Shown here one piece after another: positions 53,763-63,445 of a stretch of DNA of 64,000 nt. This DNA comes from Candidatus Poribacteria bacterium. GTDB taxonomy: Bacteria; Poribacteria; WGA-4E; PCPOR2b. Every line of letters starts with the position of its first letter. Positions within the stretch are counted from its first letter, which is position 1. The stretch is taken from assembly GCA_965208675.1 (NCBI GenBank), contig OZ242351.1:2976001-3040000 (forward strand), written 5' to 3'. The notes under the pieces were generated by a model, which did no database searches, had not been told where the DNA came from, and saw only the letters and a program-made list of their open reading frames with translations. Made by a program: the position numbers and the translations under genes.

Positions 53763-54506
53763 TTACCTCTTAATCTCGCCCCAAGAGACTGCGAGTGTGT
53801 GTTTTGGGGCGACGGCGAGCACGGTTTTTAGCCCGCGGTTCATGACAGTACGAATGTCGCGTGGGGGGAGCGCGATATTGAATATGGCGAACTCGTCGAT
53901 AAGCCCAGGAAACCTGTTTGGCCCACCAATTATAAACCGGAGATTATTCCTGTCGTCGGGCGGAACGTATGTTGTCGATCTATTCAGTGATGCGAACAAT
54001 TCCCCATCCACATAGATAGCCATTAGATTTTTGCGCCTGCTATGCACAAACGCCCAGTGCCGCCAGACCTCCCGAGTTATCATGCCAGCTTCGATTACCA
54101 ATTCGACGTATGGCGATCCGCACCGCCAACGCACAGCTTCATCCCAAGGCAATAACACGGCGATAACCCCTTCTTTTTCATCGAATGGCTGTAACGTGCT
54201 AAATAGGCGGCCATTCAGACCGTCGAAATTCTTTGTCCACGCCATAACCGTTATTTCCTCAATTTGCTGTTCTGGCGGGAAATCCCTATATGTTGTGAGG
54301 TAGCTTACTCGAAAATTAAGGCATTTTCCAAACATGCCGTCAATCCATGCACGCTCACCTAACACCGATAAACGCTTGCCTGATGCACTGTAGGGGCGCC
54401 AGTCTTTGCCTTCGTTGAAAAGCTAGGCGTCGATAACTAAATCCTTGTTGGCGGCATGGACGGCGATTGCCGCTAAAAAGCATACTGTGCTAATCAGCGC
54501 TTTCAT
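53763..54506 (-). pseudogene. LamG-like jellyroll protein with an in-frame TAG at codon 28
   Basis: MKALISTVCFLAAIAVHAANKDLVIDA*LFNEGK... is in frame with the 53763-54365 ORF (GLIDEFAIFNIAL, LAVSWGEIK). Confidence 0.8.
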
Positions 54507-54984
54507 TAGCTCGCTCCTCGCTTTCCTTTCTGCTGCGTGCTCTCATTTCTTCAAACTGTTTATCAAATTCAGCCTTGAGTTTGGCTATCCGCGCCTTGCT
54601 TTCGACGCGATACGTATCACGGCTCGCTTCTTCTTTAAATTCGAGTTCTTTCGCGTGTTCCTCCCACGCCTCTTTGTATGCCTGCCAGTGTTCCCACCCG
54701 CCATGAAAGCTATTTATGCGGTCGTTGGGCGCGGGGGTTAGGGCGGAATGGATGATGTCCGATTCTTCAAACGCCTCGCTAACGCTCTTGCCGCGGCGGA
54801 TGGCGGCGGCGATCCAATAGCTTCTATTGGCTCCAAGAAGTTGGCCTAACAAAAAATGACCTTGACGGGGGTTGTCCGTATCGATTTTCTCCGGCGGGCG
54901 ACCGTACACCATGTCGTTGAGGTTATGGGTATGGCTGCATCCGAGGATGAGTAAACATAAGCAGCCGCTAATCAGTGCTTTCAT
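54490..54984 (-). CDS. Lipoprotein, tandem paralog B
   Basis: MKALISGCLCLLILGCSHTH; similar to 54968-55456. Confidence 0.8.
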   Translation of the reverse strand: MKALISGCLCLLILGCSHTHNLNDMVYGRPPEKIDTDNPRQGHFLLGQLLGANRSYWIAAAIRRGKSVSEAFEESDIIHSALTPAPNDRINSFHGGWEHWQAYKEAWEEHAKELEFKEEASRDTYRVESKARIAKLKAEFDKQFEEMRARSRKESEERANESAD

Positions 54985-55456
54985 GGGTATGCCCCTCTCT
55001 GCAACACGACTCTCTGTATTCTTCAAGCCTTTTATCAAAATCGGCTTTGATTTTCGCTTTCCGTGCGTCGCTTTCTGCCTTGTATTTTGCGCGGGATGCT
55101 TTCCTTTCCGCTTCAAGTTGAGCTGTATGTTCTTGCCACGACAGTCTATATGCCTCCCACGTATCCCAATCTGAATAATAGTCGGTGATTCTGTCATTGG
55201 GATTGGGGCTTATGGCATTATAGATGGCGTCCGCTTCTTCAAATGCTTCGTTGACACTCTTGCCGCGGCGGATGGCGTCGCTGATCCAGTGTTCCACATT
55301 GGCTCGGAGCAGGACGCTTAACAATAATTCGGTATCTTTGGGGTCGTCCGGATTCATTGTTTCCGGGGGGCGTGCATAGTGCATTTCGCTAATGTTGTGG
55401 GTATGGCTGCATCCGAGAATGACCAAACACATACAGCTGCTAATCAGCATTTTCAT
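54968..55456 (-). CDS. Lipoprotein, tandem paralog A
   Basis: MKMLISSCMCLVILGCSHTH; RBS AGGAGG. Confidence 0.8.
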   Translation of the reverse strand: MKMLISSCMCLVILGCSHTHNISEMHYARPPETMNPDDPKDTELLLSVLLRANVEHWISDAIRRGKSVNEAFEEADAIYNAISPNPNDRITDYYSDWDTWEAYRLSWQEHTAQLEAERKASRAKYKAESDARKAKIKADFDKRLEEYRESCCREGHTHESTD

Positions 55457-55677
55457 TTTGTTTCCCTCCTTTGTTTGGAAAGAGCAGGTTGGAGGAAACA
55501 CGCTCACTGGCTAGAATATGAACGCAGTCAAAATACCTGCTCTCTCCGTTGTTTTGACCGTGATATGTCAATCCGGATGACAACATCATCTGGTAGGCGG
55601 CGCGATACGACTTGTTTGCGAAAGTGTTAGGTGCGCATTGGGTGTTACCCGCGTAACCCAACGTACAAAGACTCCCT

Positions 55678-56229
55678 TTACCTTAGTTTCCGCCATTTCA
55701 TTGTTATGCGATTGTCGCGAGTTAAAGAATGCCAGATAAGCGTTAAAACAACGCCATCCCATTTGTATTCCAATAGGACGCCATAATTCCATCTAACATC
55801 GTAACTGTGGTATCGCATAAACAAGTATTTCGAGCTATACGCGAAAATCGCCGATCTGTGTAGTTGGATTCTGTAATATTTGGGATTATTGTCTTCAGGA
55901 TAAAAAGGGCTAACAGATTCCCATTCAGAATCGAAATTGTAGTCTTGTTCTATTACAAATTCAAATTTATGGTCTAGTTCTATAGTTAATTCGCCGCGCA
56001 TTTCTTCTGCATTTTCAACCAGCCAATCACGTCCGTCATTGTATGTCTCCAGCCGATACTTTCCGACCAAATCCTTGTGTAGCGCAACTGCTTCAGATTC
56101 ATGCGTGTGGTCGTGCTGATGGCTATGGTGATGGTCGTGTTCGTGCGGGTGTTCATGTTCAGCTATAGGGTGAGTGTGTCCGCACCCAGCAAGGACGATT
56201 AACGCTATTAACAGAATAAAAGCCTTCAT
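55678..56229 (-). CDS. Lipoprotein with N-terminal His-rich tract
   Basis: MKAFILLIALIVLAGC-GHTHPIAEHEHPHEHDHHHSHQHDHTHE. Confidence 0.8.
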   Translation of the reverse strand: MKAFILLIALIVLAGCGHTHPIAEHEHPHEHDHHHSHQHDHTHESEAVALHKDLVGKYRLETYNDGRDWLVENAEEMRGELTIELDHKFEFVIEQDYNFDSEWESVSPFYPEDNNPKYYRIQLHRSAIFAYSSKYLFMRYHSYDVRWNYGVLLEYKWDGVVLTLIWHSLTRDNRITMKWRKLR

Positions 56230-56392
56230 TGGGTCATCTTCCTCTTTGCAAGGTGTTGTGAGTAATTGGCACTCGATTCTTTCAGTCTGTTTAATCTGTA
56301 TCTCGACCTGTCTCATCGCTTCATCGTCCCAACCTTCGGGGAAATCCGCCTCAGTCACAACAACACCTCCTTTCAACCCGTGTCTAACAATA

Positions 56393-57295: not shown

Positions 57296-57351
57296 CGTAA
57301 TATCTCCTTTTTGTAAAGGGTTGTGGGGAAGGCGGCAGCCTCCCCCTTTTT

Positions 57352-57549
57352 TTATTTTGTTTGCGTCGGAATTAACAATCGTTCCAAGTACCTCCAATGC
57401 AATTCTAATGCCTCTGGGGTTCCCTTTTTTATTACTATAGCTCCGTGCTCTTCCGGAGCATAGCCTGCAATACGATTGCCCTCATGGACAATTCTCGTAA
57501 GCCGACTCGTATTTACTAGGGTACGATCGTCGTCGGTTTTTATAAACAT
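57352..57549 (-). CDS. Small hypothetical protein
   Basis: RBS GAAAGGAGGTG; 'LVNTSRLTRI' resembles 53522-53707 in layout. Confidence 0.65.
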   Translation of the reverse strand: MFIKTDDDRTLVNTSRLTRIVHEGNRIAGYAPEEHGAIVIKKGTPEALELHWRYLERLLIPTQTK

Positions 57550-57555
57550 TGAAAA

Positions 57556-57825
57556 TCACCTCCTTTCAGTCAGCTCTTCATCGCGGGAGGGTCTGTTGAT
57601 AATATCGATAAATCGCCCGTGTTTATCGACATATTCGATGGTACGCAATTCTTGGTTTGCCTTCTTTTTTTCTTCTGCCATATACTCAACCTACCAGGTC
57701 CTGTCTCTATCCAAAGTAATGGTGGTAAAGGGATGCTGGTTGGTATAGGACATGGCGTCTAAGAACCAAAAGCAAAATCCAACGAATGCGAGCGCGATTA
57801 TCGGGGGAATCAAGTTTCGGTTCAT
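57556..57825 (-). pseudogene. Truncated paralog of 59830-60174 with an in-frame TAG (57691-57693)
   Basis: Near-identical 5' sequence (MNRNLIPPIIALAFVGFCFWFLDAMSYTNQHPFT); TTG changed to TAG. Confidence 0.85.
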
Positions 57826-57857: not shown

Positions 57858-58250
57858 CTAATCGTCCACATCAAACCTAATATTTCGATAACCGCCGCGC
57901 CAGGAAATAACTAGGGGTGTTACCCCGCATAATGGTTTAAGAGGATTGTCATGAATGATTTTTGTCACCGCGTCATGTTTCCTGCTTACGTTCCACTCTA
58001 TCTCTGTCTGATATAACCCTTTGCAACCGCTGACGGTAACGTTTTCCGCAGGCCCGTCAAACTGTACGTAATACCTAATGCCTGAGCCCCAACCGCCTTC
58101 CCCCCCAGGCATTATACCGGAGGAAACGTGAATAATACGGGCATCTTCGGCATGGGAATCGCAGCCAACGAGCGCAACCAAGCAGATAACGACAGCAAGC
58201 GCCGTGATAATAGCGAGTAGCGGGGACAAGCGTTTGCGCAATCGGGGCAT
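57858..58250 (-). CDS. Hypothetical lipoprotein
   Basis: MPRLRKRL...ALVGC lipobox; start-associated sequence AAAGGCAGTCTACAATG. Confidence 0.65.
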   Translation of the reverse strand: MPRLRKRLSPLLAIITALAVVICLVALVGCDSHAEDARIIHVSSGIMPGGEGGWGSGIRYYVQFDGPAENVTVSGCKGLYQTEIEWNVSRKHDAVTKIIHDNPLKPLCGVTPLVISWRGGYRNIRFDVDD

Positions 58251-58293
58251 TGTAGACTGCCTTTCGTATGCCTTATAATTTAGTTTGAAAAAG

Positions 58294-58381
58294 GGTGGCA
58301 GCGGAGAGGTCGCAGCAAGGTTAAACCTCGCGGAGCCGCGGAAATGCCCCTCAGCATAACCGCGGCGTTTACTCCCTTCCA
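58294..58381 (-). other. ~90-nt long imperfect hairpin, copy 1 (candidate structured RNA or ssDNA element)
   Basis: Near-identical to 59701-59792. Confidence 0.7.
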
Positions 58382-58493
58382 CGATACCTTTCGTGCTTTG
58401 GGGGTGCGACAATCGCATAAAACATCCAAGCAAAGAAAAAGATTGTAAACAACTTTTCCCTGACATTGCAGGTCTCCTTATGATGCGCCTCGG

Positions 58494-58697
58494 TTAGAGA
58501 ACGCCTCCGAGTAGCCAGCCGAACCTGGATTCCACGGCAGCGGCGAAACACCATAGCCCGACAACGAAGACCAAAAAACCTATCCCAAAGAATCCCAGCC
58601 AAACCCAACCGGGGGGACCGTCTCGGCTCCAATCGTCTTCAATTTTACAACCTATTCCGAAAACAACTAGGAATACGATGATGGCAAGCGCTCCCAT
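58494..58697 (-). CDS. 67-aa two-TM membrane protein
   Basis: AAAGGAGACCTCTATG start; hydrophobic. Confidence 0.65.
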   Translation of the reverse strand: MGALAIIVFLVVFGIGCKIEDDWSRDGPPGWVWLGFFGIGFLVFVVGLWCFAAAVESRFGWLLGGVL

Positions 58698-58711
58698 AGA
58701 GGTCTCCTTTG

Positions 58712-58861
58712 TTAATGCCCAAGTAATGCGGCAAAAAAGCGAATGAATGCGTACATTAGGCTGCCGAAGATGAGTAAGACGGCAATCATCATCAATGCCC
58801 ACATGACATACGGCTCGACAAGCTCCCATATCAACAGCAGTAATCCTAGTAATTCCGACAT
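58712..58861 (-). CDS. 49-aa membrane peptide
   Basis: AAAGGAGACCTACAATG start; MSELLGLLLLIWELVEPYVMWALMMIAVLLIFGSLMYAFIRFFAALLGH. Not in the ORF track. Confidence 0.65.
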   Translation of the reverse strand: MSELLGLLLLIWELVEPYVMWALMMIAVLLIFGSLMYAFIRFFAALLGH

Positions 58862-58893
58862 TGTAGGTCTCCTTTGTTGGAGCGTATCGCTAG

Positions 58894-59298
58894 TTACTCT
58901 TCACCTAAAGCAGGATCTAGGTGTATTATTCCTCTTTTATCTATCATTGTAATGCCAGCCAGCAGGTCGTCATCAATAGCCATAGCAATTGATGAAGTGC
59001 CGCCATTGCCAGAGACTGCGACACGCCCTCCATACTTATTCACGCCAATTATTACGCCTCTATCACTGAATAGTTTAAAAGTATCCGTGAGAGTGTTGAT
59101 GCTTTCCATATTAGGAACAAGAATTATCCGCGTTGTGCCGTCCGTATCGACGACTCGCAAACTGGTACACTCAATATCTCCTAACTTTGCGCGTTCAGCG
59201 AAGAGGCTAGGCATCAAGACACTAGAGGCTATCATACCTATCAGCATCAATATCCCGCCGATTGTAATATAGGCTAACTTCTGTTTGTAAGTTTTCAA
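58894..59298 (-). CDS. Exported beta-rich protein, paralog of 60194-60604
   Basis: MKTYKQKLAYITIGGILMLIGM...GDIECTSL shared with the paralog. Confidence 0.75.
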   Translation of the reverse strand: MKTYKQKLAYITIGGILMLIGMIASSVLMPSLFAERAKLGDIECTSLRVVDTDGTTRIILVPNMESINTLTDTFKLFSDRGVIIGVNKYGGRVAVSGNGGTSSIAMAIDDDLLAGITMIDKRGIIHLDPALGEE

Positions 59299-59311
59299 TG
59301 TGTGCCTCCTT

Positions 59312-59638
59312 TTAGCACGAACCTGAAATTGCGCTTAAAATCCAAATGAACACTACTACACCTATGAAAGTAAGGCAACCAAAGCGTTTCATGAACGGAA
59401 TGGGACTACCATCAAGTTCAGATTCTACTTTATGTGTATCTAATTCCCACCCCCTTCCGCATATATCACAAAGCATGAGCCATTTTTTCTCAGTTACAAA
59501 ATTGAAAACCCAGTATACGCCCCAATGTCTATACTCAAGAACAAGCTTGAATCGCCGCTCTTTGTCACACACTTCGCAATGTTGCGTCGCAATCTGACCA
59601 CAATCAATTACATCACCACCAGATCCCCAAACAATCAT
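59312..59638 (-). CDS. Zinc-ribbon membrane protein
   Basis: MIVWGS...CEVC...CDICG, C-terminal TM helix; RBS GAGGAG. Confidence 0.75.
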   Translation of the reverse strand: MIVWGSGGDVIDCGQIATQHCEVCDKERRFKLVLEYRHWGVYWVFNFVTEKKWLMLCDICGRGWELDTHKVESELDGSPIPFMKRFGCLTFIGVVVFIWILSAISGSC

Positions 59639-59700
59639 GAGAGCTCCTCGCGGCCCTGTGTCGCACCGGGTTTCCGGGGGAGCCAGGGTCACCGCCATAA

Positions 59701-59792
59701 GGTGGCGGCGGAGAGGTCGCAGCAAGGTTAAACCTCGCGTAGCCGCGGAAATGCCCCTCAGCATAACCGCGGCGTTTAACCTCCCCTCCGCC
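59701..59792 (-). other. ~90-nt long imperfect hairpin, copy 2
   Basis: Stems GGCGGAGGGG/CCTCTCCGCC, AGGTTAAAC/GTTTAACCT, GCCGCGG/CCGCGGC, ATGC/GCAT. Confidence 0.75.
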
Positions 59793-59829
59793 ATAAGATT
59801 ATGGGGGAGGCGGCTGCCTCCCCCTTTTT

Positions 59830-60174
59830 TTATCTCTGTGGTCTTCTACCGGGGTTTCTCATTATCTCCGGGATGCTGGACGGATCCACATAAAAGGGTT
59901 CTGTTTTCAGCTTTTTCGGGCGTTTGATAACAGGGGTTCTGTGGGTAATATCGATAAATCGACCCTGCTTGTTGTGGACGTATTCGATGGTACGAAATTC
60001 ATAATCGTATTTCTTCTTTTCTTCTGCCATGTACTCAATCAACCAAGCCCTTTCTCTATCCAAAGTAATGGCGGTAAAGGGATGCTGGTTGGTATAGGAC
60101 ATGGCGTCTAAAAACCAAAAGCAAAATCCAACGAATGCGAGCGCGATTAGCGGGGGAATCAAGTTTCGCTTCAT
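59830..60174 (-). CDS. Membrane-anchored hypothetical protein
   Basis: AGGAGGGAAACAAAATG start; N-terminal TM helix; pseudogene copy at 57556-57825. Confidence 0.75.
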   Translation of the reverse strand: MKRNLIPPLIALAFVGFCFWFLDAMSYTNQHPFTAITLDRERAWLIEYMAEEKKKYDYEFRTIEYVHNKQGRFIDITHRTPVIKRPKKLKTEPFYVDPSSIPEIMRNPGRRPQR

Positions 60175-60193: not shown

Positions 60194-60604
60194 TTACTGG
60201 CTATAGCCGTTTTTGTCGTAGATGGACACGGCGCCGTTGCCATGTTCGTTGATGCCCATGATGGCGTAGCCTTTCGATCTGCCATGCGTACTTACATAGC
60301 CGCCATGTTCATCAGTACCGATTCTCACTTGTTTATTATCTACAGCGTCACCCTCGCGGAGGAAGACATCACCGGCACCGATTATCGTAGCTCTTGTTGG
60401 AGCGTCTTTCCACATAGCAATGGATTGTTTACTAATAAGTATAAACGCATCTTCGAGTCCACTGCCAATCTTCAAGCTCGTGCATTCAATATCTCCGAAT
60501 TTATCCTGTTGTGCGGTTATAGGTGATAGCAGCATCCCAATAATGGTAAAAATACTGCCTAACGCCATTAGCCCTGCCTTTTGCTTCCAAGTGGTTTTGA
60601 TCAT
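60194..60604 (-). CDS. Exported beta-rich protein, paralog of 58894-59298
   Basis: MIKTTWKQKAGLMALGSIFTIIGM...DKFGDIECTSL; repeated 'EHGG/EHGNG' motifs. Confidence 0.75.
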   Translation of the reverse strand: MIKTTWKQKAGLMALGSIFTIIGMLLSPITAQQDKFGDIECTSLKIGSGLEDAFILISKQSIAMWKDAPTRATIIGAGDVFLREGDAVDNKQVRIGTDEHGGYVSTHGRSKGYAIMGINEHGNGAVSIYDKNGYSQ

Positions 60605-60872: not shown

Positions 60873-62579
60873 TCATCTCTTATAAGCCGACCGGTCAGTA
60901 TTCCCGCCGTATTTCATCGCATACACGAACATATTCACCATGAACCGATGCACGTCCGCGGAACGGCGCATCCGCAGCATTGTCCGGCTGGGGATTTCCG
61001 CCGTCTCCATCGCACAGAGATAATCCTTCCGATTGTACACCACTGCGAGGCGGCGCCCGATTGTAATCCCCTTCTGAAACTTAAACTTTGTCACCTTCGG
61101 GTTGTTTTCAGACCCCCAATACACATCAGACCCGTTCGGCGGAATAGACAGCTTGTAATAGATAGAATAAATCTCGTGGCTGTGGGGAACAGACTGGAGC
61201 GGGTATTCCGGCATAATTTTCTTCAATTCATCAGCGACACGCGCAGCGAACAAGCCCTTGAACCCGCAATCATCGAAAAATAGCAGCCCGCCGCGTTCCA
61301 CAAGATACTTTCTCATCGCCGACCGTTCTGCCGGTGTAAAGCCCGACAGCCACGGCTCGCCGCGCATCAGGTTACGGGTTGTGGTCAACTCCTTATCGTG
61401 ACCTGTCATGACAATTATCGGCGCATCGAGGATTCGCGGATCTGTCATCCGCATCGCGCCGCCCTCCAGTTTCATATCCGCACGCAGCCGAGTGTTGTCC
61501 GATAACCACCGCATGAAACTCGGCAGAGCTGACGGGTCTTGCCACCAATCTGCAAGGGAATGTATTAACCGAGTAAAGCGGATGTGACCTTGTATATCCG
61601 CGCCCTCACCCTCTAAAATAGCACCTAACTTATCATCAGGGACAGTCGTGATTTTAGCCAACGGGTCGTCTCCCGCGCCGCCGGCATCAGCAGCCCCGAC
61701 CGACCCCACCAGCGAGTCAATTCCGCTCGAATGAATCCCGCCGCGGCCGGGCCCGTTGATGTCGTCCGTACCCCGCCCGTGTCCGGTTCTGAGACCCCGG
61801 CGCCTTCCAACCCCCGGCGCAATAACCTCCTCATTGCGTCTAGTGTCAAGCTGTGCCGCCGTCGTGACAGGCGCATCGACAATCGCGTCGGGCGTCAACG
61901 GCGACACGTCCATTGATACGCTTCCCGGCGCCGGCGCAATCGGCTTAGCAATTCTTTGAGCAGCCGAAACGCGAACCGACTGGGCAATCGGTTTCACGGC
62001 TGGGCGCACCGGCTCCGGGGGTTTAGGCTTAATCTTTTTAGGGCGCCTAGTCTTTGGCACCGGCTTTACCATCTCCACGGCAATCGCATCTTCGATAACC
62101 TCCGCATCGTCGGTTGCCAGTATAAAAATGACAAAAGCCAAGATAACGTGCGCCACCGCGGAGATTAACATCGAATTGCGGACTTTACTACTCTTTTCGG
62201 TGACAACCGCCGCCGCGGCCTTGGACGCCAATGATTCGGGTGTGTATCCGGACGCGCTCAGGTAGTAGGTCTGTCCGCCGCAATCAACCTGCATCTGTCC
62301 ACCCGGGAGGCTCCGGAACTGGGCGCTTTCGCCTGCTCGGATTATTTCGCTCACCCGTATAATCGGCAGACTTACCGACCCCGGTTGTGCAATCTCCGCG
62401 TCGATTGTTATTTTTCGGTCTGCGGCGAAAAGCTCAAGCCTGTCAACGCCAATGCTCCGCACACGAACATCGGAAACATTCGATAGCTGATTTTCTCGCG
62501 CCGCCTGTGATTGGAGCGACTTAATCGCCTTCAGAATATTTGCTGTTTCTATCGTGAATTGCATACGGCAAGTATTCAA
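60873..62579 (-). CDS. DUF4159-domain membrane protein with an N-terminal beta-clamp-like domain
   Basis: C-terminal PIIVMTGH...RKYLVERGGLLFFDDCG...HEIY (DUF4159 pattern); central TM helix and Pro-rich linker; N-terminal ~110 aa align by eye to DnaN domain I. Confidence 0.75.
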   Translation of the reverse strand: MNTCRMQFTIETANILKAIKSLQSQAARENQLSNVSDVRVRSIGVDRLELFAADRKITIDAEIAQPGSVSLPIIRVSEIIRAGESAQFRSLPGGQMQVDCGGQTYYLSASGYTPESLASKAAAAVVTEKSSKVRNSMLISAVAHVILAFVIFILATDDAEVIEDAIAVEMVKPVPKTRRPKKIKPKPPEPVRPAVKPIAQSVRVSAAQRIAKPIAPAPGSVSMDVSPLTPDAIVDAPVTTAAQLDTRRNEEVIAPGVGRRRGLRTGHGRGTDDINGPGRGGIHSSGIDSLVGSVGAADAGGAGDDPLAKITTVPDDKLGAILEGEGADIQGHIRFTRLIHSLADWWQDPSALPSFMRWLSDNTRLRADMKLEGGAMRMTDPRILDAPIIVMTGHDKELTTTRNLMRGEPWLSGFTPAERSAMRKYLVERGGLLFFDDCGFKGLFAARVADELKKIMPEYPLQSVPHSHEIYSIYYKLSIPPNGSDVYWGSENNPKVTKFKFQKGITIGRRLAVVYNRKDYLCAMETAEIPSRTMLRMRRSADVHRFMVNMFVYAMKYGGNTDRSAYKR

Positions 62580-63445
62580 TCCTCAATTTTGAACCGATAC
62601 GGAACAATTATGCGGATTGTGACCGGTTTGCCGTCTTTTTGCGCCGGCTTAAACCGCGACCGTTTCAACGCCTCGATTGCTGCTTCATCACAGCCCATTC
62701 CAATTCCCGCTCTTACCTTAATATCTCTGGCTTTGCCGTCAATTCCGATGGTCGCCTCTAACTTCACAACCCCTTCTTTTCCGGCATGACGGGCACGTTC
62801 CGGATACTTCGGCTTCGGCTTATGGATGGCTTTCGGCGGTACGGTGTTATCCGTAATGTCCACGACGGGTACGTTGACAGTGTCGTCTAGCCCAATATCT
62901 GCGTCCGGGATGTCTGTCTCCATCTCGTTAAAAATTGATGGTCGGTCAGGCCTGGTGGTGGGAATCTTCGGCAATTCAGGTTCAATGCTTGGGCGTTCCC
63001 CTTCGGCAATTGGCGGCCTTTCAATCTTGGGAATCTCCGGCGGTGCATCAGGTGAGTCAATAACAAGGTTATCTGAAGGAACAGCATATCCGCCTGAGCC
63101 GGACGGAATGTCCACCGGTTTTACGGGCTGGCTGGGTCGGGTTGTCGGAGTTAGCCGTACTTCGGGTTTAATTGTCTTAGCTTCACGCTCAGGTTCACGA
63201 GGTGGGGGTTTAACCTTCTTCGCCTCAAACATTTCAGTTACCACTGCATCATCATCGTGAATCGCTACATTTTGGGCGATGTGAAAAGCGACAAACAGCA
63301 TGATGACCAAATGGAAAGCAAGAGATACAATCCACCCAAGAGATTTAGACACGCGATTTTTCTTTCTCTGCCGCCGCTCTAAAATCGGCTCAACCGCAGG
63401 AATCCGGCGTTTACGTTCATGATTTAGCGAATTTGACTTGGACAT
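62576..63445 (-). CDS. tonB: TonB-family energy transducer
   Basis: SLAFH TM motif, Pro-rich linker, PKYPERARHAGKEGVV...FKPAQKDGKPV. Confidence 0.9.
   Translation of the reverse strand: MSKSNSLNHERKRRIPAVEPILERRQRKKNRVSKSLGWIVSLAFHLVIMLFVAFHIAQNVAIHDDDAVVTEMFEAKKVKPPPREPEREAKTIKPEVRLTPTTRPSQPVKPVDIPSGSGGYAVPSDNLVIDSPDAPPEIPKIERPPIAEGERPSIEPELPKIPTTRPDRPSIFNEMETDIPDADIGLDDTVNVPVVDITDNTVPPKAIHKPKPKYPERARHAGKEGVVKLEATIGIDGKARDIKVRAGIGMGCDEAAIEALKRSRFKPAQKDGKPVTIRIIVPYRFKIED

Follow-up and report, generated by a model that had tools for sequence, protein, structure and literature searches.

A predicted bulged hairpin element with an acceptor-like tail and compensatory changes in intergenic spacers of a Candidatus Poribacteria genome

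The window studied here is a stretch of 64,000 nt from a Candidatus Poribacteria bacterium (GenBank assembly GCA_965208675.1, contig OZ242351.1, positions 2,976,001 to 3,040,000 of the forward strand), and our subject is a discrete module, GC-rich and about 97 nt in length, hereafter the element, which occurs twice near the end of the window. Judged from its sequence, it is a real structured element that is a member of no named family and forms a module separate from its neighbours, and the substitutions between its copies show that its hairpin is under selection for helices and for particular unpaired bases. We tentatively read it as a co-transcribed RNA processing or stability module that spreads in the manner of small palindromic intergenic repeats, a reading that we regard as possible rather than probable.

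A first-pass annotation of the window, made from the letters alone, had reported two near-identical copies with different flanks. A repeat search of the window recovered them as a 78-nt direct repeat of 97% identity (58294-58371 and 59701-59778), and a model alignment extended the homology, more weakly, to 58294-58388 and 59701-59795, while the flanks of the two copies were unrelated. The minus-strand sequence of copy 2 was as that annotation had given it, and GCCACC stood 3' of the stem in both copies. The count of two holds for the window; the genome, a single contig of 4.89 Mb (here G000), contains three copies in total, the third and diverged one being located on the minus strand 2.6 Mb from the window (G000:C1:389571-389662). 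Copy 3 was found at 36 bits with covariance model R1, which was built from copies 1 and 2 using the structure proposed in the first-pass annotation, whereas blastn of the genome recovered copies 1 and 2 only. With the three-copy alignment, nhmmer gave three hits in the genome at E 1e-17 or better and a next best hit at E 1.9, and covariance model R2, run over the whole window with filters off, returned only copies 1 and 2 (next best E 2.5). The two copies in the window are as follows.

59699 to 59797, minus strand: element copy 2, the complete module (cmsearch 121.2 bits, model match 59701-59795)
58294 to 58388, minus strand: element copy 1 (cmsearch 102.5 bits)

The outer borders of copy 2 were placed by two contigs, since the likeness to a contig of run X6 ends at 59699 and a contig of X7 is unlike the window below 59798. 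The GC content is 0.60 to 0.63 in the elements and 0.36 to 0.51 in the flanking genes, and only 2.5% of the 95-nt segments of the genome reach 0.62. In copy 1, the 3' 78 nt are nearly identical to copy 2 and the 5' 17 nt are degenerate, through a 2-nt deletion and 3 substitutions. Copy 2 is enclosed by the two instances of a 10-nt direct repeat (minus strand CTTATGGCGG; 59788-59797 and 59692-59701), the second of which lets the tail of the element and the following bases make a small hairpin. No such bracketing direct repeat was found at copies 1 and 3.

The minus strand of the element was taken as the sense strand, because all credible genes between 54 and 64 kb are located on it. Read on this strand, the element folds into a rod that consists of helix P1 (10 bp), an 8-nt bulge on the 3' side, helix P2 (9 bp), a second 8-nt bulge on the 3' side, helix P3 (7 bp), a UU/UU internal loop and helix P4 (5 bp). 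The parts of the rod in copy 2 are listed below.

59783 to 59792, minus strand: 5' strand of P1, GGCGGAGGGG, which pairs with 59707-59716 (pairs 4-13/80-89, 4 of them changed on both sides)
59774 to 59782, minus strand: 5' strand of P2, AGGUUAAAC, which pairs with 59725-59733
59742 to 59773, minus strand: apical hairpin, with P3 (GCCGCGG/CCGCGGC), the UU/UU internal loop, P4 (AUGCU/GGCAU) and a GAGG loop
59734 to 59741, minus strand: bulge 1, 8 nt long, UACGCGAG, separating P3 from P2 on the 3' side, with GCGA kept in copy 3
59725 to 59733, minus strand: 3' strand of P2, GUUUAACCU, which alternatively forms a local hairpin with both bulges
59717 to 59724, minus strand: bulge 2, 8 nt long, UGCUGCGA, separating P2 from P1 on the 3' side, with UGCU.CG kept in copy 3
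59707 to 59716, minus strand: 3' strand of P1, CCUCUCCGCC; bases 59785 and 59714 form a G.U pair here, which is C.A when read on the plus strand
59701 to 59706, minus strand: single-stranded tail GCCACC, identical in all three genomic copies

Besides the tail, the inner apical part (GGUUAU..AUUUCC) was conserved in all copies, as was the unpaired UA(U/C) that precedes P1. P1 and P2 are weakened in copy 1 because of its degenerate 5' end. The tail can be read as a discriminator G followed by CCA behind an acceptor-like stem.

The first-pass annotation had named covariation among homologues as a check on its structure, and compensatory changes were indeed present among the diverged copies. In a structure-blind MAFFT alignment, 85.6% of the cells paired and 7 pairs of the rod were changed on both sides, as compared with 0 to 2 pairs when the structure was slid along the alignment, and the observed value was reached by 1 of 500 shuffles. 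In the model-fitted alignment, 11 pairs were changed on both sides (0 to 3 in the controls). The change in P4 was a single G-C pair that is A-U in copy 3. Further changes came from an independent sponge-metagenome contig of 345 nt (X6 record 4), which covers 59699-59904 with 22 differences and 3 gaps. Inside the element, this variant differs from copy 2 by at least 13 substitutions and 2 indels, and 8 of the substitutions make up 4 exactly compensated pairs, so that at least 4 compensated pairs are added beyond those in the genomic copies. Three are located in P3 (59772/59743, C-G to U-A; 59770/59745, G-C to C-G; 59768/59747, G-C to U-A) and one in P2 (59778/59729, U-A to G-C). In P2, the changed bases 59774 and 59775 pair with a base inserted after 59731 and with its neighbour. 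When bulge 1 was kept open, the constrained fold of the X6 variant was likewise a rod, its 3' side interrupted by two 8-nt bulges and its 5' side having 26 consecutive paired bases, at -49.3 kcal/mol as compared with -51.3 kcal/mol for copy 2.

Both copies in the window fold better on the minus strand than expected from shuffled sequences, with -60.3 kcal/mol (z -5.5) for copy 2 and -48.9 kcal/mol (z -4.2) for copy 1, and none of 200 shuffles was as good in either case. The thermodynamic minimum of copy 2 is, however, a three-way junction, which has a predicted energy of -59.3 kcal/mol, versus -51.3 kcal/mol for the rod, and both folds are possible in every copy. For the junction, only 4 pairs were changed on both sides, as compared with 0 to 3 in the controls; in its local hairpin none of the 7 pairs was changed on both sides and 4 of the 7 were broken in copy 3, and the junction pairings were not homologous between copies 2 and 3. 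We prefer the rod over the junction because it is the rod that is supported by the paired changes in the diverged copies. The four stacked stems and two one-sided 8-nt bulges that were drawn in the first-pass annotation are thus backed by comparison, but they do not represent the lowest-energy fold of copy 2. The same annotation had placed copy 2 within a larger structured leader, in agreement with the fold of the spacer 59630-59840, which is a chain of three hairpins with -110.7 kcal/mol and a z score of -6.9. One of these is the following.

59646 to 59697, minus strand: a further leader hairpin, past the element and ahead of the gene C (described below) ribosome-binding site, not common to copies 1 and 3

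The element was not recognised in the first-pass annotation as a transfer RNA (tRNA), signal recognition particle RNA, 6S RNA or riboswitch, and was there suggested to be a novel non-coding RNA. A search of the whole window with Rfam 15, which includes these RNAs as well as transfer-messenger RNA (tmRNA) and small ribozymes, gave no match at the gathering threshold. With E values of up to 5, the best match in 58200-59900 was AniS, which reached 28 bits where the threshold is 50, lies on the opposite strand and takes in a neighbouring hairpin (hairpin H, below), and no match with E up to 1 was obtained around copy 3. The novelty of the structure as such is therefore borne out by the lack of an Rfam family or a tRNA match, by the compensatory changes and by the lack of a kept reading frame. 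Aligned with each other, copies 2 and 3 show gaps of 2, 1 and 2 nt, because of which no reading frame is kept, and we therefore rejected conservation as a protein-coding sequence, which the annotation had named as a finding that would count against it. The open frames that run across copies 1 and 2 are explained by the near identity of these copies. An intrinsic terminator was likewise rejected, since a terminator scan lists the element on neither strand and the copies are followed by GCCACCUUAUGG, GCCACCAUCUUAA and GCCACCCUUUUUC. We also rejected a promoter inside the element, as by our own reading no -35/-10 pair is conserved among the copies, and a promoter scan lists none. The likeness of GCCGCCACC to the eukaryotic Kozak consensus was taken as coincidence.

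The acceptor-like stem followed by G-CCA in all three copies, together with the stability of the rod, could also suggest a stand-alone, stable small RNA that is excised from the transcript, is about 95 nt long and ends like a tRNA in GCCA, acting in trans or serving as a substrate for CCA addition or aminoacylation. The substrates of RNase P described in PMC4919922 do include hairpin RNAs such as the 4.5S precursor. We nevertheless consider such an RNA distinctly unlikely. No tRNA gene was detected in the window by ARAGORN, and the best local alignment of the element to the 49 tRNA and tmRNA genes of the genome had a score of 25, which is within chance (mean best score of 20.3 and maximum of 29 in 100 shuffles). 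A relic of tRNA-Ser, to which 10 nt (CCTCTCCGCC) in common with the 3' end of tRNA-Ser(gct) might have pointed, was rejected on the same grounds. Furthermore, copies 1 and 2 have no promoter or terminator of their own, the conserved tail runs on as CC past GCCA, and the genome has three copies that differ, not a single conserved gene.

All three copies are located in intergenic spacers, on the strand of the genes, and each ends shortly before a start codon. The genes next to copies 1 and 2 are listed below; copy 3 ends 22 nt before the start of a gene for a protein of 162 amino acids with an N-terminal membrane span and no Pfam family.

59312 to 59638, minus strand: gene C, encoding 108 amino acids with a Cys-rich N-terminal part, a C-terminal membrane span and no Pfam family, with the start 62 nt after copy 2
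57858 to 58250, minus strand: gene D, encoding a predicted lipoprotein of 130 amino acids with no Pfam family, with the start 43 nt after copy 1
59830 to 60174, minus strand: gene B1, the upstream neighbour of copy 2, encoding 114 amino acids with a membrane span and no Pfam family, and with a paralog at 57556-57825
59803 to 59824, strand not assigned: hairpin H, part of the 3' end of gene B rather than of the element; it reads as a terminator on the plus strand only (T-run)

A start of gene C at an AUG codon immediately after copy 2 and in frame with the gene was considered and rejected, since the ortholog in genome G003 and a GAGGAG ribosome-binding site place the start at 59638. No counterpart of gene D was found among 30 relatives.

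The position in the leader and the sense orientation, the conserved unpaired nucleotides and the two folds open to every copy would also fit a regulatory leader, either riboswitch-like or protein-binding, in which rod and junction are two states and the bulges and the apical loop bind a ligand or a protein by which the downstream gene is controlled. A near-consensus promoter-like site (TTGACA, 18 nt, TAATAT; 10 of 12 matches) about 125 nt upstream of copy 3 would fit as well, but it is at chance level, with 1 found and 1.3 expected. The lack of homology between the junction pairings and the uncompensated, partly broken local hairpin argue against this reading. In addition, the copies share neither a terminator nor a platform that sequesters the Shine-Dalgarno sequence, the downstream genes belong to no common family, and orthologs of gene C manage without the element. 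We therefore hold a regulatory leader to be unlikely.

The element behaves as a unit distinct from the genes beside it. Gene B with hairpin H is found with the element in G000 and X6 and without it in genome G002 and contig X7; in G002, gene B and hairpin H are directly followed by another gene. The ortholog of gene C in G003 (83% identity) has an unrelated upstream region without the element, and the likeness of the X8 contigs, also without it, to the window breaks off precisely at the gene C start codon. Neither copy 3 nor its gene is present in the three genomes of the genus, and copy 3 is flanked by dispersed repeats and a gene for an IS3-family transposase (rve, 72.6 bits).

The distribution beyond the genome was narrow. 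No element was detected with model R2 in three genomes of the same genus, with all candidates scored up to E 10, nor with R1 in 28 other genomes of the family, nor with R2 under stricter filters in samples of 150 genomes each from the order and the phylum. In total, it was found in 1 of about 190 species genomes searched, and the X6 contig is its sole outside relative. Parts of the region were present in four sponge-metagenome runs and one coded-organism run, and a single-sample set of four runs contained nearly all of it; none of these 9 runs is recorded as RNA. Pattern scans were also negative. Among genome contigs, the palindrome pattern gave 99 stretches, none with matching flanks, and the best extension by blastn was 23 nt. 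The apical motif gave no hits among metagenome contigs, and the apical motif combined with the tail gave 25 stretches, none of which was matched by R2 at the pattern site and which we judged to be chance. The single stretch found among viral contigs, in which the apical 28 nt alone were matched (13.7 bits), was judged likewise. Comparison by blastn gave no match to phages and one 32-nt match to plasmids, with an E value of 0.3. A literature search identified no RNA motifs described for the phylum Poribacteria, which is a thin basis for calling the element absent from print.

These patterns of occurrence raise the question of whether the element is instead a selfish, non-autonomous DNA element, such as a palindromic repeat resembling a miniature inverted-repeat transposable element (MITE) or a repetitive extragenic palindrome, or a target of an HUH/relaxase-type enzyme, with the hairpin required as single-stranded DNA for mobilisation. 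The UA(U/C) before the stem and the GCCACC after it would then be cleavage or recognition sites, and any effect at the RNA level would be incidental. This reading, which we take to be rather unlikely though it is the main rival, accounts for the sharp borders of the module and the different flanks at each copy, for the presence and absence next to gene B with hairpin H and upstream of gene C in G003 and X8, for the occurrence in one of the species genomes searched, for the decaying 5' end of copy 1, for the CTTATGGCGG repeat around copy 2 and for the placement of copy 3 in a strain-specific insert beside the IS3-family transposase and dispersed repeats. When compared with what is expected of a MITE-like or palindromic repeat, the element is palindromic throughout and present or absent at orthologous sites, but it shows neither a target-site duplication that is consistent (there is none at copies 1 and 3) nor many dispersed copies. 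Its copies number only three, and they have no linked candidate enzyme gene in common. IS3 transposases are DDE enzymes and are not known to use hairpin ends. Moreover, terminal inverted repeats that are bound as double-stranded DNA need no compensation in the inner helices, yet P3 and P4 covary. The orientation relative to the downstream gene is the same in all three copies, with a chance probability of about 0.25.

Copies 1 and 2 are in direct orientation and enclose a 1.4-kb block of four small genes. This arrangement, the small same-strand genes of no known function in the region and a bulged hairpin of suitable length recall gene cassettes bounded by the attC recombination sites of integrons, which are folded as single-stranded DNA, and an attC-like substrate had been one of the suggestions in the first-pass annotation. 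The attC sites are imperfect hairpins of 60 to 140 nt between small cassette-like genes, and their structure, but not their sequence, is conserved among sites. Their consensus has outer boxes RYYYAAC ... GTTRRRY at the hairpin base and single extrahelical bases. The boxes of the element, GTTAAAC...GTTTAAC, are in the reverse order, are located in the second helix rather than at the base, and are replaced in copy 3 and in X6. Its long 8-nt bulges take the place of single extrahelical bases and of an unpaired central spacer. There are three sites only, and no integron integrase reached the cut-off in the genome. The best match to TIGR02249 had 41.2 bits against a cut-off of 265, is located 1.9 Mb away and resembles an ordinary Xer-type recombinase. 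An attC-like site is thus disfavoured, and we regard it as most improbable.

By analogy, the closest known systems are RNA-level small palindromic intergenic repeats, such as the Correia elements of Neisseria and the ERIC sequences of enterobacteria, together with the non-tRNA substrates of RNase P. Among the effects described in PMC2649163, RNase III can cut Correia elements or protect them, and Correia elements alter neighbouring genes. Like Correia (CREE) and ERIC sequences, which are about 100 to 150 nt, the element is palindromic over its whole length, is found in intergenic spacers and is present or absent at orthologous sites; co-transcription with the neighbours is also a likeness, if it occurs in the element as we suppose. 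It differs in that they have tens to hundreds of copies and the element has three, and in that it shows no consistent target duplication and no sequence similarity to them. ERIC sequences show compensatory changes. The anatomy of the element, with two equal one-sided 8-nt bulges and an acceptor-like tail, is unusual, and we know of no counterpart in Correia or ERIC sequences to such bulges combined with a conserved GCCACC tail. The RNase III hairpins of the early genes of phage T7 are also intercistronic and bulged, and their cleavage leaves a stabilising stem on the mRNA. They are similar in size to the element, which has no sequence relation to them and a context that is not phage.

An RNase III-type processing site was also among the suggestions of the first-pass annotation, and a site for RNase III or RNase P is plausible. 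For the processing or stability module that we favour, we infer that the element is transcribed, acts as RNA and not as single-stranded DNA, is cleaved and affects expression. It would be transcribed within the leader or intercistronic spacer of accessory genes for small membrane proteins and lipoproteins, where it would serve as a cleavage site for a structure-specific ribonuclease or as an obstacle to such an enzyme. The downstream gene would thereby be uncoupled from the upstream transcript, with a stable hairpin staying at the new end of the mRNA, and the module would have spread by duplication or recombination.

RNase P is our preferred candidate enzyme, with RNase III, acting on the long helix, as an alternative, because the end of P1 mimics the acceptor end of a tRNA. 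In copy 2, this end has A(-2) and U(-1) before G(+1), followed by the stem and G-CCA, and the stem and G-CCA are found in all three copies. In the class-A RNase P RNA that the genome encodes (302.6 bits), a GGGU stretch aligns with CGGGU of the consensus, and CCA is encoded in roughly half of the tRNA genes. The features of bacterial RNase P presented in PMC4919922 include pairing of the 3' RCCA with GGU in the L15 loop, a preference for U(-1) and A(-2), tolerance of strongly truncated substrates, and cleavage of operon mRNAs and of the 4.5S precursor. With the non-tRNA substrates mentioned there (4.5S precursor, operon intercistronic sites and RCCA hairpins; PMC4919922), the element has in common a helix that starts at G(+1) and an unpaired purine followed by CCA. 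By position it resembles the intercistronic ones, and copy 2 additionally has U(-1) and A(-2). In contrast to a tRNA, which has a 12-bp stack of the acceptor and T stems, the helix of the element is broken after 10 bp by an 8-nt bulge. It also differs from RNase P substrates in that its lowest-energy fold pairs GCCA and in that U(-1) is found in one of the three copies.

Several observations weigh against the processing or stability module. The lowest-energy junction of copy 2 pairs GCCA with UGGC, and the acceptor-like end would therefore be hidden in that fold. Likewise, A(-2)U(-1) before the stem is confined to copy 2. The covariation draws on three genomic sequences, two of which are nearly identical, and on one variant known from a difference table alone, for which 5 of the 22 differences are unplaced and could fall inside the element; the structure tested was itself derived from one of the compared sequences. 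The three downstream proteins share no family, having in common a membrane span or a lipobox, and the spacers after the element are unrelated, with no common expression platform. The narrow distribution, the presence or absence at one junction and the IS3 neighbour would fit selfish DNA equally well. The evidence from strand is also weak and cannot separate RNA from single-stranded DNA. Folds of element length were better on the minus strand in all three copies, and copies 1 and 2 have G.U pairs, which the opposite strand would turn into C.A mismatches. The rod of copy 3, however, has no G.U pair, and when 106 nt of this copy are folded the plus strand does no worse than the minus strand (-38.5 and -37.7 kcal/mol, respectively), so that the strand evidence rests on copies 1 and 2. 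The cumulative GC skew of the genome was too noisy to place the origin and terminus.

It is quite improbable, in our view, that the element is a portable 'punctuation mark', that is, a tRNA-acceptor mimic that RNase P excises from transcripts and that moves between accessory gene cassettes of a sponge symbiont. If this were true, newly acquired genes would obtain a processed, hairpin-protected mRNA without a promoter of their own, and the freed 95-nt RNA with its GCCA end might be stable and act in trans. Were the acceptor-like end a real RNase P site, it would represent a bacterial, tRNA-like form of mRNA punctuation that travels with accessory genes. More broadly, a phylum of sponge symbionts that are uncultivated would gain a structured module not described before. 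Two aspects that tend to be investigated separately come together in it, namely the behaviour of a small mobile repeat (a discrete unit, found or missing at a site, with near-identical copies 1.4 kb apart) and a conservation like that of a functional RNA. Its general importance is limited because of its rarity, since it is confined to one species and a related population.

Several features of the surroundings were observed in addition. Hairpin H, GGGGGAGGC.GCC.CCTCCCCC, is GC-rich and conserved and follows the stop codon of each gene-B paralog, at 59803-59824 and at 57325-57346 in the window. It is also found without the element at 57321-57355 and in G002 (L055, about 1500-1530), with a further copy just beyond the window (G000:C1:3040336-3040370). 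Because its T-run is on the strand opposite the genes, it reads as an intrinsic terminator for antisense transcription only; on the gene strand, an A-run precedes it instead. The region contains paralogous genes for small membrane proteins (57556-57825 and 59830-60174; 58894-59298 and 60194-60604), and the DNA repeat 57623-57832/59972-60181 is 89% identical. Gene B2 looks broken, because it is split into two open reading frames of 44 and 41 amino acids where B1 encodes one protein of 114 amino acids.

Three adjacent genes for predicted lipoproteins with a common N-terminal motif (...LILGCSHTHN...) are located at 54490-56376, and one of these proteins has a His-rich stretch, HEHPHEHDHHHSHQHDH. 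At 60873-63445, a gene for a protein of 568 amino acids, the C-terminal domain of which is DUF4159 (96 bits), precedes a gene for a proline-rich protein of 289 amino acids, the end of which we take, by our own reading, to resemble a TonB C-terminal domain.

Around copy 3, the gene for the IS3-family transposase (HTH_21 and rve; L159 119-898, plus strand, corresponding to G000:C1:388189-388968) is convergent to the gene downstream of the copy, and two copies of it in G002 have 95% identical DNA. The promoter-like site upstream of copy 3 is located at L159 1717-1746 on the minus strand and has a TG before TAATAT. About 60 nt beyond it, at L159 ~1605-1645 on the minus strand, there is a 9-bp hairpin followed by seven T; from this site and the hairpin with its T-run, copy 3 may perhaps be placed behind a short terminated leader. 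Finally, each of the three genomes of the genus has many dozens of occurrences, with 91% to 100% identity, of a dispersed repeat of about 45 nt that is found at L159 ~1919-1967.

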